DNA of 64,000 nt from Methanobacteriota archaeon (GTDB lineage Archaea; Thermoplasmatota; Thermoplasmata; SG8-5; JAGLSY01): assembly GCA_020696385.1 (NCBI GenBank), contig JAEHCQ010000002.1:96001-160000 (forward strand). Direction: 5' to 3'. This document shows positions 11,237 through 63,965 of the stretch, in pieces (position 1 is the stretch's first letter; each line of letters begins with the position of its first letter). The notes below the pieces were generated by a model that did not search any database, was not told the DNA's origin, and saw only the letters and a program-made list of their open reading frames with translations. The translations under genes and the position numbers were made by a program.

Positions 11237-11818
11237 TTGAGGGTGGACACAGAAAATAAAGATGAATATTTTGAATTCCTGAATAATAAAAAGCCCCAGG
11301 CAAACCTATTTTTAAAGTCTGATAAACCTTATATTTGGAATGATCTGCATAAACAATTAATGAGCACTGCCATTATCGGCATAGTGGTCTTTTCTATAAC
11401 TCATATTTTGGGAGTTCTATTTCCAGTTGGATCTGATACATTTTCTTTAGAAGGGTTTTTTACGAACTGGGCATGGGTATTTGTAGTTCTGGGATTCATT
11501 TTGATCATAATGGCGATGATCTCTTTGAGAAATACTGGCTATTATAGATATGTGGTTTTTTTACCAGGGGAAATTCCAGAACAATATGAATCCATATTGG
11601 AAGATAAATTGAAAGATATTGGGGCAGATTTATTAATTATCAATCAAGGAGATCCCTTCAATAATGATCAAATTAAACCTAATTTGGTGATGATTGGTAA
11701 AGTCAGCGCAAGACCTGTTTTAACAGTTTATGTAGAGATCGAGTCTCATCAGGAGGATTTTGCAATCATTCGAAAACCTATTGACGAGTCCTTTGTATGG
11801 ATAGAAAGTAATGTTTGA
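11237..11818 (+). CDS. AT-rich hypothetical 2-TM membrane protein
   Basis: Two hydrophobic helices; visibly more AT-rich than its neighbours. Confidence 0.55.
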   Translation: MRVDTENKDEYFEFLNNKKPQANLFLKSDKPYIWNDLHKQLMSTAIIGIVVFSITHILGVLFPVGSDTFSLEGFFTNWAWVFVVLGFILIIMAMISLRNTGYYRYVVFLPGEIPEQYESILEDKLKDIGADLLIINQGDPFNNDQIKPNLVMIGKVSARPVLTVYVEIESHQEDFAIIRKPIDESFVWIESNV

Positions 11819-11848: not shown

Positions 11849-12160
11849 ACCCGGCTTAACAAACTATTCTCCCAACAAGGGTGGGTCTCAGTGTGTTGTC
11901 AGTGAGGTGGGGGCCTGGAAGGCGGGAGATACAATAATATGCAGAGCGATAATTATGCGAACATGCCCCGTCTGGATGATTCATATAATATTTAGCAGGG
12001 CGGGGTACTATATTCGGTGATGATTCAAGTGACAGTTGCGATGTGCCAGTAGGAAAATAAACTCCTCGCTCAAGACAAGTCTAAGTTCATATTTCTAGCC
12101 TTGTTCAAAATGCGAGGAGGAAAATAAAGCCCCGCCTCGATCAAAGCAGGGGCGGGGTCC
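11849..12160 (+). repeat. Dispersed palindromic intergenic repeat, copy A
   Basis: Contains acccggctt..caagggtgggtctcagt, catgccccgtctgga..cagggcggggtac and aagccccg..gggcgggg; homologous to 27336-27610, 37525-37778 and 63661-63965. Confidence 0.85.
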
Positions 12161-12278
12161 TTATCCTCACCCAACATAACAAACGAACACGACACACCTC
12201 CGCCCTAGCTTATCAAATACTCATTTCCCACCACAAACCCTTTTATTCCCCCACCTCAATGTACAAATGGTGGAAAAA

Positions 12279-26124: not shown

Positions 26125-27048
26125 CTAATTCTCATCTATCAGTTCATATTCTGATAGTATCTGTGTCAGTATATACTCGGGATCCAGATGGCCGATATCC
26201 TCCTGGGATATTTTATTGATGGTCCTTATTAGGCTCTGTCTGACCTTGGGAGTTAGCTTTGCCCTTTTTTCTTTTGGTAATTGCTCAAATATCCCATTCA
26301 ACAATGAGGTCATGTCCACGACATTTTTGGGAACTTGACTGGCAAGCTTGGCCTTTTGAGCGATTATGCCACTTCCTCTAACGATAGTGTATGGGTGCCA
26401 GAATCTGCTGTGCTTGCTACTTCGGCACTTGATTATCTTCATCTCTCTTTTTTCCGGGCTGTCATGACTTCTGTATCTGAGATGAATGACATTATCAGCC
26501 AGATACATCGGAATTACCAATTCTGGACCTGACAGGTCACCAACAACACCGTGTTCTTCCAGGGTGCACACCACTGTTCCAATATTTCTCGTTCCTCTGA
26601 GAAGTGAGGAAACTAAGTCCCTTTGCTCATATTTGTCCTCAGTGGACCAGAGCACGGGCGTGAGAGGATCGATGACTATCCTGGCATTGTATCCTTTCCA
26701 TTCATCAACAAAGCCTGCCAGTTCTGTCTTGATAAAATCCGAGAACTCACGACCTCCAGCATCGACGAAGATCAGCATTCCCTTATCGATATAATCTTCA
26801 ACATCTTCCCAACCCATCTCTATCACGCCTTTGATGATCTGCTTCGGGCTCTCGTCCAGGGTGATGAAGATAGCATCCTCTCCCAGTTCCAGACCTCGCT
26901 TCAGGAAATAAGTTGCGAAAGTGGTCTTTCCAGCACCAGAAGTACCAATAACCGCAGTTATCGTATTCTCATTAATACCCCCATCCATCAGACTGTTCAG
27001 TCCATAAACACCGCTCTTGATCTTTTTCAAAGGTATGTGGCTCACCAC
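26125..27048 (-). CDS. KaiC/RAD55-like RecA-superfamily ATPase
   Basis: SGVYGLNSLMDGG, GTSGAGKTT Walker A, FITLDE, RIVIDP, IIKCR. Confidence 0.9.
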   Translation of the reverse strand: MVSHIPLKKIKSGVYGLNSLMDGGINENTITAVIGTSGAGKTTFATYFLKRGLELGEDAIFITLDESPKQIIKGVIEMGWEDVEDYIDKGMLIFVDAGGREFSDFIKTELAGFVDEWKGYNARIVIDPLTPVLWSTEDKYEQRDLVSSLLRGTRNIGTVVCTLEEHGVVGDLSGPELVIPMYLADNVIHLRYRSHDSPEKREMKIIKCRSSKHSRFWHPYTIVRGSGIIAQKAKLASQVPKNVVDMTSLLNGIFEQLPKEKRAKLTPKVRQSLIRTINKISQEDIGHLDPEYILTQILSEYELIDEN

Positions 27049-27335: not shown

Positions 27336-27610
27336 CCCGCCATCGTGTTTAGGATTTCAGAAAGATTGATCTCCCCGCCCATCGTTGAACTCCTGACGGG
27401 GCTTCAAATCTCAGAGCACTCTGTATTTGTCACTCGCTGGGTCATCGAATATAGTACCCCGCCCTGATGAATGCTCTATGAATCATCCAGACGGGGCATG
27501 CTTGAATGCAAATGCCTTGCAGAGATTCAGATCAGTTTTATCCAACCCAGCTTGACAAGCTATTCTCCCATCAAGGGTGGGTCTCAGTATTTTCTCAGTA
27601 TGGTGGGGAT
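27336..27610 (-). repeat. Dispersed palindromic intergenic repeat, copy B
   Basis: Core module (27336-27500) is the reverse complement of copies A/C; accessory module (27545-27610) is in + orientation. Confidence 0.85.
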
Positions 27611-37160: not shown

Positions 37161-37468
37161 TGCCAGGCACCGAGCTTGTCGCCCGCACCACGCACTGGTT
37201 AGTCATTGACCTTCTCGGTTCCGCAACCCTGAGAGCGTCGGTAATATGTGGTAAGGCTGCTCCCGTCAGGGCCTGACCCGGTCTCCACAATCAAGGAAAT
37301 AATGCCGCCCTCCGGCTGCATCATTTTCCACTTCCAACCCCAAAGGACAGAACCTCATGGTCGGACAATGGTCCAACACGGGGCCGGTTACGCCGCACTC
37401 GGCCGTCACCCCTGCTAAAGACGATTTCAGTGTATAAGGGGACGCCTACCCCCCCGGTTAGCCTAGCA
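37161..37468 (-). ncRNA. ffs: Archaeal SRP (7S) RNA
   Basis: Minus strand: 5' tgctaggc pairs with 3' gcctggca; helix 6 gcc-GGAG-ggc; helix 8 gggtcaggccc-TGAC-gggagcagcc; ~308 nt; TATA-like ttttatatat about 25 nt upstream. Confidence 0.92.
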
Positions 37469-37524: not shown

Positions 37525-37778
37525 CCAACAAGGGTGGGTGTCAACAATGTCTCAGTGTGGTGGGGGCGGAGCCAGGTGGGGGCAATGTGTTAACAGAGCA
37601 ATTATATTCGAACATGCCCCGTCTGGACCATTCAAAGAACATTCAGCAGGGCGGGGTACTCTCAGTGATGTGCTAGCGAGTGACAGTCACAGAGTGCTCT
37701 GATATTCGAAGCCCCGTCCAAAGGGCGGGGAGGTCAATCTCTCTATAATCCTAAACACGATAGGCGGGAGCCAGGTGG
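37525..37778 (+). repeat. Dispersed palindromic intergenic repeat, copy C
   Basis: caagggtgggt..ctcagt, catgccccgtctgga..cagggcggggtac, gcgagtgacagtcacagagtgct, gaagccccgtccaaagggcggggaggtcaa. Confidence 0.88.
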
Positions 37779-37799: not shown

Positions 37800-38777
37800 C
37801 TACCGCCAAACAACATCCACATCATCAGTACGAAATCTCTGATCCACCTTTGTCTCGCTGATGTCATGTGCCACCCCGGCCTGGTTCATCAACAGACCGG
37901 TCCAGGCTATCATGGCCCCATTGTCCGAGCATAGAGGACCGGGGGGAACGAACATAGTGGCATCTCTCTCACTGGCCATTATCGTGACCATTTCCTGTAA
38001 CCGCTTGTTCTGGGCCACACCTCCGCCCAGAAGTACTTCCGATGTGCCGAGATGCGCCATCGCCCTCTCGGTGACCTCGACCAGCATTGCGAAGGTAGTC
38101 TCTTGAAGACTATGGGAGATGTTTTCAATTTTGTGTTTATCCTTTTTGGACAGCGCGGCTGTCAAAATACCTGAAAAAGCAATGTCCATACCCTTGACCG
38201 AATAGGGCAGGTCAAGGTATTTGTCTCCATTCCTGGCCATCTTCTCAATGGTCGGGCCTGCTGGGAATGGCATGCCCATCTCTCGCCCGAACTTGTCCAG
38301 CATATTGCCGATGCCGATATCGAGTGTTTCTCCGAAAACTCGATATTTTCCATTGGCAAAAGCGATCACCTGGGTATTGCCTCCAGACACATACAAAAGA
38401 ACTGGATCCTGACAGCCGAACATTCCACGGCCAATTTCCAAGTGAGCGACACAATGATTCACTCCCACTATTGGCTTTTTCAGGGTGAGTGATAATGCCC
38501 TGGCCATCGTGGCCCCGGTACGAAGACACGGGCCCAATCCCGGACCTTGGGCGAAGGCCACCACATCGACTTCCTGCTTGGATATGCCAGCTTTCTCCAT
38601 GGCCAGCTTCAATACACCTGGACCTTTGTCCGCATGATGGTTAGCCGCCTCTCTGGGATGAATGCCACCCTGCTTCGGGCTGTACATGATGGTCTCATTG
38701 GCAAGTATTCGGCATTGATCGTCCACAATGCCCACTCCAAAGCTATGGGCGGTGGATTCGATTCCCAAGCATATCAT
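37800..38777 (-). CDS. kae1: tRNA N6-threonylcarbamoyltransferase Kae1/TsaD
   Basis: LGIESTAH, GGIHPREAA, GPGLGPCL, VNHCVAHLE, DNGAMIA. Confidence 0.95.
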   Translation of the reverse strand: MICLGIESTAHSFGVGIVDDQCRILANETIMYSPKQGGIHPREAANHHADKGPGVLKLAMEKAGISKQEVDVVAFAQGPGLGPCLRTGATMARALSLTLKKPIVGVNHCVAHLEIGRGMFGCQDPVLLYVSGGNTQVIAFANGKYRVFGETLDIGIGNMLDKFGREMGMPFPAGPTIEKMARNGDKYLDLPYSVKGMDIAFSGILTAALSKKDKHKIENISHSLQETTFAMLVEVTERAMAHLGTSEVLLGGGVAQNKRLQEMVTIMASERDATMFVPPGPLCSDNGAMIAWTGLLMNQAGVAHDISETKVDQRFRTDDVDVVWR

Positions 38778-39994: not shown

Positions 39995-41194
39995 TCAACC
40001 CAATCCGCGAGACTTCAACAGACTTCGAACCTTGTCAGCTAGCACAGTGGATGGAATGTCAGGAAGTGATATCAGGGTCGTCTTTCCAACATGACCCTTG
40101 CCAGATATTCTGAGGCTCAATAATCCATGACCATCCAGCTCCTTTAGATATTCCCAGAACCTGGTATGTGCCCGAGGAGTTTGTTCAAATTCCTCGGAGG
40201 CCAAAGCGTATGCCTTCTCAGCCTCACTGGTCGTGATATAGGCCTTGGATCTTATGGCCATGGATATCCCTAATAATGTCAGAAGTTTGTGATCGGACAA
40301 CGGGGTCATGATGGATTCAGTTATCACCGAATGTGTCATGGCTTTTGCAGATCTGATGTGATCCGGATAGATCATATCAGAACTGCCCTCACTGGCGATC
40401 ATGCCGGAATTCTCCAAAAGTTCTATTCCAAAACGGGCATCGCCCCATTCGGAAGAGATGTCCGCGATAAGCTCCACTGTATCATCCTCGATGGTTCCCG
40501 GATACAGGGCCAGTTCCACCCTGTCCCTTAGAATGTCCCATAATTGTTCCTTATCATAATTATCGAATTGGATCGTGTTGGTTCGCTTGAAAGTTGATAA
40601 TGTGGCCGGGTCGAGGAACTCGTAGATCGGTCTCTGGGATATCAGAAGAAGTGATAGGCGATGATCACCGCCCATATTCTCCTCGTCGAACCTGGATAGC
40701 GCATAAAGAAGATCTGTGCCAGATCTCTTAATCAGAACATTGATCTCATCGAGAACGACGATGAGATTGACATTTCTCTTATCGATGTGTTTTCTCAGTA
40801 TCTCCAGCATCTCCGTGGTCGAGAAGCCGCGATCCGGAAAGCCCTTGTCAAAATGATCGATTATTTTCAGAAGCACGCTGGCGGCCGTGTTCCTCGCACG
40901 GCAGTTGACCACCACGAACTCCAATCCCTTGTTCTTCTCATTGGCCCATTCCTTGAAATCAATGCAGAAACGCTTGGACAGAACGGATTTACCAGTACCC
41001 ACATTGCCTGTGAGAAAAGCACGCTGGCTCATATTTCCCTCTACTGTTTGGCGGAATATGGAGAACAGGCGTTGCATCTCCTTGTCCCTGTGCACCAATG
41101 ATTGTGGGACGAATTCAAAGGATAGCTTGGCTGGATCCTTGATTATCTTCTGCTGATACTCGTCAAAGGGAGGCATCTCACTCAACAATATCAT
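39995..41194 (-). CDS. cdc6: Orc1/Cdc6 replication initiator
   Basis: LVHRDKE, GNVGTGKS, VVLDEIN, GDARFGIELL, C-terminal wHTH. Confidence 0.92.
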   Translation of the reverse strand: MILLSEMPPFDEYQQKIIKDPAKLSFEFVPQSLVHRDKEMQRLFSIFRQTVEGNMSQRAFLTGNVGTGKSVLSKRFCIDFKEWANEKNKGLEFVVVNCRARNTAASVLLKIIDHFDKGFPDRGFSTTEMLEILRKHIDKRNVNLIVVLDEINVLIKRSGTDLLYALSRFDEENMGGDHRLSLLLISQRPIYEFLDPATLSTFKRTNTIQFDNYDKEQLWDILRDRVELALYPGTIEDDTVELIADISSEWGDARFGIELLENSGMIASEGSSDMIYPDHIRSAKAMTHSVITESIMTPLSDHKLLTLLGISMAIRSKAYITTSEAEKAYALASEEFEQTPRAHTRFWEYLKELDGHGLLSLRISGKGHVGKTTLISLPDIPSTVLADKVRSLLKSRGLG

Positions 41195-63660: not shown

Positions 63661-63965
63661 GTTTGGGATTACAGAAAGATTGACCTCCCCGCCATTTTGG
63701 CAGGGTGTCGAATATCAAAGCACTCTGTGACTGTCACTCGCTGGGTCATCGTTGGGAGTACCCCGCCCTTGCGTCCCTCAGGATTGCTCCGTCTGGCACT
63801 GAAATATAGAATGACTTCGCAACTCTCGATTTTCTGATCACTCACATCGAATCCAGGACGAAAATCTTCGAGCGGGGCATGTTGTAGGGAGCATACTGAG
63901 ATTCAGTAGGCTGTTGTCATGTCGATTAGGCCTTTTGATCGGGCAACATAGTCACCCAGCTTGAA
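63661..63965 (-). repeat. Dispersed palindromic intergenic repeat, copy D
   Basis: Reverse complement of the core (attgacctccccgcc, gcactctgtgactgtcactcgctgggtcatcg, gtaccccgccc ... cggggcatg) with an expanded loop; acccagcttga at 63954. Confidence 0.85.

Follow-up and report, generated by a model that had tools for sequence, protein, structure and literature searches.

We have identified a family of modular, hairpin-forming intergenic repeats that is specific to one archaeal lineage, occurring in two families of a single order of Thermoplasmata. The window, by which we mean the whole stretch of 64,000 nucleotides that was analysed, carries four copies, designated A to D; the source genome (G000) comprises 2.28 Mb in 50 contigs with 45.5% G+C, and a sister species (G002) is available for comparison. 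In all copies the motif CATG is followed by a hairpin (H1), the motif GTAC and a linker whose last nucleotides are GAGTGACA. The unit of the element is a GC-clamped hairpin of 8–10 bp, with two such hairpins, H1 and H2, standing in the same orientation and joined by this linker, and with an optional hairpin (H3) and interchangeable leaders and tails completing the structure. Taken as a whole, the family is best explained as a lineage-specific, modular mosaic repeat of a REP/BIME-like kind that acts in single-stranded form, a tentative reading to which we give not far short of an even chance.

Four homologous, non-coding intergenic elements had been noted in the window by an earlier sequence-only reading. 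Both rereading and a scan with R1, a covariance model of the element core run with filters off, agree with this, the scan returning exactly four copies and one partial match on the second hairpin of copy A. R1 places the cores of copies A, B and C at 11962–12035 (+), 27427–27500 (−) and 37613–37686 (+), respectively, each with 81–88 bits, and that of copy D at 63731–63801 (−) with 27 bits, the low score being caused by the 117-nt loop of its H1. The four had been described with one common layout, which holds for copies B, C and D but not for copy A. The former are of the short build, in which the linker runs straight to H2 and then into a tail beginning AGGTCAA, whereas copy A represents the long build, having an extra hairpin (H3), a different, C-rich tail and an end at ~12205. 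These are the two main builds of the family, which in addition has several tails. Copy A, consisting of leader, H1 (from 11962), linker, H3, H2′ and tail type 2 with an extension, occupies 11930–12205 (+), a stretch missing in its entirety at the orthologous site of G002. It is preceded at 11849–11929 (+) by a motif resembling tail 2 and by a G-rich module, M0, the latter being common to G002, where copy A is absent; M0 is therefore a separate module. Copy B, of short form with H1, linker, H2 and tail 1, lies at 27343–27500 (−; R1 87.6 bits) and is accompanied at 27544–27610 (+), in the opposite orientation to its own, by a tail-2-like motif and M0 that are conserved in G002. Copy D, also of short form, lies at 63664–63881 (−) and its 117-nt H1 loop is a structured insert. 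M0 consists of two G-runs around a CTCAGTG-like direct repeat and adjoins copies A, B and C, at 11877–11890, 27573–27586 and 37530–37543 (+), respectively; the exact 14-mer AAGGGTGGGTNTCA is found within it at 37530 and recurs at 11877 and 27573. A motif related to M0 is also observed 5′ of an IS200 tnpA gene.

Copy C illustrates the layout of the short form on the forward strand. M0 occupies 37525–37579, the last 15 nt of which (37565–37579) form the first unit of a direct repeat, and is followed by an A/T-rich 5′ leader with a TTCGAA motif (37580–37612), one of two leader types that recur 5′ of H1 at a variable distance from it. H1 extends from 37613 to 37658 (R1 81.4 bits) and comprises CATG and, as predicted by RNAalifold, a 10-bp stem, arms 37615–37624 and 37649–37658, around a 24-nt loop. 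The conserved linker (37659–37710; 52 nt) is unpaired, no consensus structure being predicted by RNAalifold, and contains at 37678–37686 the motif GAGTGACAG, which is conserved across both element-bearing families. H2, also predicted by RNAalifold and having a short loop, lies at approximately 37711–37730, tail type 1, starting AGGTCAA, at 37731–37762, and the second, 16-nt unit of the direct repeat at 37763–37778. The direct repeat noticed beside copy C in the initial reading is thus located precisely; its units measure 15 and 16 nt and both are kept at the orthologous locus of G002, the second with changes. An archaeal SRP RNA (37161–37468, −; 161.8 bits) adjoins copy C and is transcribed away from it, its promoter region sitting between the SRP RNA and the G-rich module. 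Genes for Kae1 (37800–38777, −) and Orc1/Cdc6 (39995–41194, −) are situated just downstream of copy C, and a replication origin may therefore lie nearby, the GC skew being too weak to tell. Judged by the Kae1 protein, the host is an archaeon of Thermoplasmata type, its best named relatives, MAGs of Thermoplasmatales and Methanomassiliicoccales, being no more than 65–69% identical.

The stems of H1, H3 and H2 are upheld by compensatory change. When copies are anchored on CATG and GTAC with no pairing assumed, the H1 stem is seen in six or more versions, all fully paired. In an alignment (A3) of 30 cores, taken from five genomes of family f4 as well as from G000 and G002, 98.3% of H1 cells are paired and three pairs show double changes, the covariation score is reached by none of 500 shuffles, and pairing falls to 47–58% when the partner is displaced by one to three columns. 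The covariation that a covariance model had been proposed to examine is therefore supported by both the double changes and the shuffles, R1 being the model built. RNAalifold predicts H1 and H2 alone in 16 short-form copies, leaving the linker unpaired, and H1, H3 and H2′ in eight long-form copies, in which 10 of 34 pairs, found in all three hairpins, show double changes. Stems are GC-rich and 8–10 bp long and loops range from 3 to 126 nt, the conserved stems and variable loops described from the window copies being confirmed over the aligned copies. Folding is strand-specific: three H1 pairs in A3 are of the G·U type, pair 4/46 being G·U in 30/30 copies, 10/40 U·G in 22/30 and 12/38 U·G in 23/30. 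Only one strand therefore folds well, A·C mismatches arising on the opposite strand, and the earlier suggestion that G-T pairs favour one strand is upheld by these three pairs. Since the element folds on one strand, a purely duplex role is excluded, and the pattern fits either RNA or single-stranded DNA. In family f4 the hairpins are minimal in form, and 23 of them, though diverse in their stems, all have TGTGAG or TGTAAG as the loop, which corresponds to a GNRA-type tetraloop with U·G as its closing pair; three scrambled versions of the loop, used as controls, gave 0–2. Single sequences fold only slightly better than shuffles, with z of −3.0 for copy A and of −1.8 (+) and −1.1 (−) for copy C. 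Pairing of the leader with the region preceding H2 in a closing helix was considered and rejected, as the TTCGAR motif involved is a direct repeat, RNAalifold predicts no helix there and pairing fails in most copies.

BLAST with the four window copies against G000 returned 139 matches in 50 loci, many further copies rather than few thus emerging from the genome-wide search, and an nhmmer profile of the H1-linker junction detected 42 core copies. A family size of four is therefore correct for the window but an understatement for the genome, which contains ~42. R1 detects 38 copies in G000 (E up to 0.001) and 36 in G002, the highest number being 45, in G010, and CATGCCCCGTCT, with 24 occurrences, is among the commonest non-simple 12-mers of G000. 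Among relatives, BLAST detected the element in 10 of 41, and R1 detected it in 17 of the 22 genomes of the order at 1 to 45 copies per genome. By family, positive genomes are 4/4 in f1 besides G000, 12/13 in f4 and none of two in each of f2 and f3. With stricter filters, R1 was positive in 14 of 151 genomes sampled across the class, all from f1 or f4, the 27 other families in this sample having no element. A 15-base pattern gave 81 stretches in viral contigs and R1 confirmed none of the 80 loci passed on, for which reason these matches are attributed to chance. Metagenome contigs gave nine stretches with a 24-base pattern, none near enough to G000 or G002 to provide a pair of empty and filled sites; the only match was 80% identical over 1148 nt. 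No catalogued family was recognised by Rfam either: in the window the SRP RNA alone passes gathering, and in permissive scans of copies C and A the best scores were 12–21 bits against cut-offs of 50–75, so that neither copy comes near threshold. G000 contains a second, unrelated dispersed repeat of ~65 nt with the core AAAAGAAAAGGCTTCC, present in ~21–24 copies and often near copies of the hairpin family (for example L001:1020-1110, C11:632370 and C48:76535). Other abundant 12-mers of this genome are TCACTGCCCAGAC (21 copies) and ATTATTGTAAATATC (about 20 copies), which could represent CRISPR repeats or additional families of repeats.

Loops and tails are swapped or nested as whole units. H1 and H2 draw on one common loop repertoire, a 57-nt double hairpin occurring in the H1 loop of two copies and in the H2 loop of three others; an H1 loop insert of 115–117 nt is common to five copies and one of 125 nt to two. 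Each element contains three to four TATTCGA-like motifs. Copy B has tail type 1 in G000, and its G002 ortholog lacks this tail and has a different one, tail type 1 behaving as a block that is either present or absent as a unit between the two. The stretch beyond TCAA, whose conservation had been taken to argue against a simple IS end, is accordingly a conserved, separable tail module, and the argument stands. A C-rich module of ~60 nt ending in CCTGCTCGGAGTGG (L139:3950-4010 on G000:C44; G003:C90) is shared by G000 and G003 and not by G002; it occurs without the hairpin element in G003 and is also found 3′ of long-form copies. At the same G000 locus, the tail of a copy (L139:4230-4250, corresponding to G000:C44:138230-138250) falls, when aligned, on the TATA-like box that the downstream gene has in G002 and G003, so that in this case the tail may contribute a promoter or overlap with one.

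The best pair of paralogs is 92.2% identical over 218 nt and the next 88.8%, most pairs ranging from 75 to 89%; judged by this divergence the copies are old, with no sign of a recent burst. Contig C22 of G000 is collinear, at ~85% identity, with a G002 contig from 100 to 482 kb. Within this region G002 has a copy at each of the sites of B, C and D, no element at the sites that correspond to copy A and to two further G000 copies, and one copy that faces an empty G000 site, three further G002 copies falling outside the count. Two more G000 copies, located on another contig, are also absent from G002. Thus, three of the eight G000 copies checked are present and five are absent at the same G002 site, and copies come and go between sister species. 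Mobility is suggested by presence and absence alone, a pattern that deletion could also produce. The comparison of empty sites that had been recommended succeeded to the extent that these five absences were found, but the ends of the element could not be read from it, spacers at filled and empty sites being too diverged to reveal either exact ends or target. Segments that differ between G000 and G002 often exceed the element and include the C-rich module or a lineage-specific ORF. Two such ORFs, of 193 aa (window 11237–11818, +) and 252 aa (G002 L107:205-963, −), have hydrophobic stretches and adjoin element copies in an arrangement that looks cassette-like.

In orthologous copies the stems are unchanged and whole loops are replaced. 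Copy C has an H2 loop of 3–4 nt in G000 and of 14 nt in G002, the linkers of the two differing by a single mismatch, and copy D has an H1 loop of 117 nt in G000 and of 27 nt in G002, its H2 loop also differing. Identity between orthologs is 92.6% for C, 89.6% over the 53% of D that is aligned and 69% for B, as compared with a background between these genomes of 80% in aligned intergenic and 84.5% in coding sequence. Conservation above the intergenic background is therefore not clearly seen for the shared copies B, C and D and, with identity so uneven, extra purifying selection on whole copies is not claimed.

The copies prefer the 3′ ends of genes. Context was scored with crude ORF calls of at least 120 aa, by which 39 of the 42 copies have two called neighbours; apart from overlaps attributable to the crude calls, all copies lie between called ORFs, and many start 20–60 nt past a stop codon. 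Of the 39, 18 are in convergent, 12 in tandem sense, 4 in tandem antisense and 5 in divergent settings. Convergent spacers make up 266 of 1526 (17%) of all spacers, and the excess of elements in them is significant (p about 3e-5). Orientation can be judged in tandem settings only, where the sense bias is not significant, being 12 sense to 4 antisense in G000 (p=0.08) and 14 to 9 (p=0.40) when pooled with f4, in which 2 sense and 5 antisense were recorded among 20 loci. Replication-strand bias was also not detected, the GC skew being weak, following gene strand and bearing no relation to element orientation. Genes for KaiC-like ATPases lie beside copies at five distinct loci in five genomes (window 26359–27021 (−); L163, L165, L170 and L190). 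A link between these genes and the element was rejected, since G000 has ~25 such genes (30 domain matches) and only two or three of the 42 copies adjoin one.

Searches for Y1, TnpB, tyrosine recombinase and reverse transcriptase revealed no mover linked to the element. The sequence-only reading had proposed a REP/PATE-like, non-autonomous element, or a structured ncRNA such as a stand-alone RNA resembling omega RNA. The corresponding rival is a PATE-like, non-autonomous derivative of IS200/IS605, or an orphan guide scaffold of TnpB or IscB, that would be moved as single-stranded DNA by a Y1 transposase. Two similar imperfect hairpins on one strand with G·T pairs and TCAA 3′ of H2, together with the lack of terminal inverted repeats and of target duplication and the single-copy Y1 gene present in 16 of the 22 genomes of the order, are in keeping with such an origin. 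The Y1 gene itself is not: it is present in all five genomes that lack the element and in only 11 of the 17 that bear it, and the single Y1 gene of G000 resides on a contig other than that of the window. Its product scores 119.5 bits as a plain IS200 transposase and 28.2 bits with the RAYT model, for which the cut-off is 80. The hairpins to be sought beside a tnpA(Y1), RAYT or tnpB gene were found at none of the 12 tnpA loci inspected (G000 and 11 relatives), the best nhmmer match to the family core having E=0.14; BLAST of the flanks gave three weak matches, one of them from an unrelated repeat in the query flank, and the Y1 flanks are not repeated elsewhere in G000. The TnpB domains PF07282 and PF01385 are absent from G000, and PF07282 exceeds its cut-off in one of the 22 genomes, which lacks the element, leaving the omega-RNA suggestion without a TnpB partner in G000. 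Sequence is conserved past TCAA, and an "empty" joint, with leader and tail directly adjoining, was not encountered in G000. We therefore regard the proposed link to IS200/IS605, PATE or omega RNA as unsupported and very unlikely; the remainder of that reading, a multicopy, non-coding structured element of REP type in kind, is retained. The tnpA gene of G000 (L001; G000:C50:510-3857) encodes 143 aa and lies beside two tRNA genes of 87–88 nt, with a 104-nt local duplication (97%) and a further, incomplete copy of the 3′ end of tnpA. Y1 is mostly single copy where present in the order, which is unusual for an insertion sequence. Reverse transcriptase was detected in 2 of the 22 genomes and tyrosine recombinase as four matches in G000. 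None of the Y1, TnpB or tyrosine-recombinase matches is inside the window, which bears out, for these searches, the statement that it has no transposase. Terminal inverted repeats, reported as lacking, are indeed not shared by any of the four window copies, and this, with target duplications that do not exceed the control, stands against a classical MITE moved by a DDE transposase. A MITE, or a set of double-stranded binding sites for a DNA-binding protein, would be multicopy, intergenic and variably present, with TATTCGA-like motifs repeated within each element as seen here, but compensatory changes in stems and G·U pairs on one strand would be useless in duplex DNA, and we regard either as highly improbable. 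We assign a slighter chance still to attC-like cassette recombination sites or tyrosine-recombinase attachment sites. Conserved structure around a variable H1 centre, a lineage-specific ORF beside the element at two polymorphic sites, direct repeats of 12–16 nt flanking copy C and one other, and a possible resemblance of tail 2, on its other strand, to the GTTRRRY core would agree with such sites. The copies are single, scattered among core genes and not in arrays, empty sites contain no partner site, and flank repeats (a 12-nt exact repeat in 2/42 copies) are no more than expected, the distribution of longest shared lengths being that of mismatched-pair controls.

The main rival proposes ~40 independently transcribed genes for structured sRNAs that start at H1 and end past H2, the linker and loops having copy-specific functions. 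GNRA-type loops, strand-specific pairing through G·U, the single mismatch in the copy-specific linker of the C ortholog and the persistence of the family over two families of the order with no visible transposase are all compatible with sRNA genes, as are A/T-rich, TATA-like motifs 5′ of H1 in many copies and T-runs past the last hairpin in some. Nine copies, the 4 in antisense tandem and the 5 in divergent settings, would in addition receive no sense transcript from flanking genes. Against this, the distance from the TATA-like motif to H1 varies, judged by eye, between the two leader types and in f4, and a promoter at a fixed distance from H1 was rejected on account of this inconsistent spacing. 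Many copies begin only 20–60 nt past a stop codon, families of RNA genes do not usually show block exchange and nesting of modules, five of eight copies are missing from the sister species, and B and D are conserved no better than intergenic background, so that we consider sRNA genes a doubtful explanation. Known sRNA classes were also inspected by eye and rejected: box C/D, as the gap from GAUGA to CUGA is only 27 nt, terminal pairing is absent and CUGA is missing in seven short-linker copies, and H/ACA and short-peptide readings because of spacing and inconsistent frames. A bolder proposal is that the copies are neither junk nor ordinary transposons and that each host genome has, since the two families split, kept some 40 structured modules, of RNA or of single-stranded DNA, with a conserved protein that would read the H1-GAGUGACA scaffold and new hairpin modules that would be written into hairpin loops without a known transposase; we hold this, too, to be rather unlikely.

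We return to the modular mosaic repeat of REP/BIME-like kind as the preferred explanation. The element most likely acts as RNA hairpins within read-through transcripts of the flanking genes, where the hairpins could provide a barrier at the 3′ end or a module that stabilises termination and the linker would be a putative binding site for a conserved factor. Spread would be rare and would proceed by hairpin-directed recombination or single-strand insertion rather than by classical cut-and-paste transposition, and could include small twin-hairpin modules inserted into hairpin loops. Because of the placement at 3′ ends, the old copies, block exchange, nesting and patchy presence, we regard the element as an archaeal counterpart in kind of the REP/BIME, BOX and NIME mosaics and not as a member of those families.

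The REP and BIME elements of Enterobacteria and Pseudomonas are described, in the parts of PMC3733652 that treat them, as short, GC-rich imperfect palindromes of high copy number that are extragenic and mostly downstream of coding regions, with conserved linkers that join units into mosaics, variation between related species and a proposed role as RNA hairpins. The archaeal element resembles them in its short GC-rich palindromes, 42 copies, extragenic location, linkers, mosaics and variation between species. It differs from BIMEs in that H1, H3 and H2 are in direct and not alternating orientation. The REP superfamilies of Di Nocera et al. (2013), as summarised in PMC3733652, have a GTAG or CGTC tag, stems of 8–9 bp starting with A-T and loops of 4–5 nt, unlike the CATG/GTAC frame observed here, in which GTAG or CGTC is never terminal, CGTC occurs only inside the 5′ arm and loops are 3–126 nt. 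A further difference is the long linker, which is the best conserved part of the archaeal element. In the portions of PMC3733652 and PMC2817692 that concern them, the REP families and RAYTs described belong to bacterial phyla, and the listing of REPs in the former is of bacterial phyla only. The present host is an archaeon, and the REPIN-RAYT arrangement is also lacking, there being no RAYT and only a Y1 protein far below the RAYT cut-off, with the repeats absent from its flanks.

The PATE elements of Haloquadratum are miniature derivatives of IS200/IS605 with twin subterminal hairpins on one strand that include non-canonical pairs. Twin one-strand hairpins, non-canonical pairs, no inverted ends, no target duplication and an archaeal host are features common to these and the present family, which differs in having no tnpA or tnpB with the same ends, modules beyond both hairpins, and old, diverged copies. 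The BOX elements of Streptococcus pneumoniae and the NIME and Correia mosaics of Neisseria are intergenic and built from start, optional middle and end modules. Modular build, strong predicted folding, intergenic location and the lack of a recognised mover are shared with them; in contrast, the sequences are unrelated, the host belongs to another domain and modules are here nested in hairpin loops. Integron attC sites have conserved stem bases, a variable centre and one functional folded strand. The conserved stem bases, variable centre of 20–130 nt and single folded strand of the archaeal element are similar, the absence of arrays and of a link to an integrase being dissimilar. Among the repeats named in the sources as consulted are dRS3 of Neisseria (PMC3733652) and, in the relevant part of a 2024 review (PMC10969869), PATE elements and archaeal MITEs, the latter only for Sulfolobus, Halobacterium, Haloquadratum, Desulfurococcus and "several other" genomes, with none named for Thermoplasmata. 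Such an element in Thermoplasmata was not found in the literature on archaeal MITEs and intergenic repeats, in a survey lying mostly outside subscription journals.

REP/BIME-type repeats are a staple of bacterial genomes, where their effects extend to the stability of mRNA, to termination, to nucleoid proteins and to domesticated transposases. Structured repeats of this type have barely been described in archaea. For annotation R1 is available as a ready covariance model, and in these metagenome-assembled genomes the family gives rise to mis-assembly and broken contigs. The archaeal family provides a test case for the origin and persistence of such repeats in archaea and, if the reading as host-kept modules were true, would represent a new kind of archaeal repeat biology.
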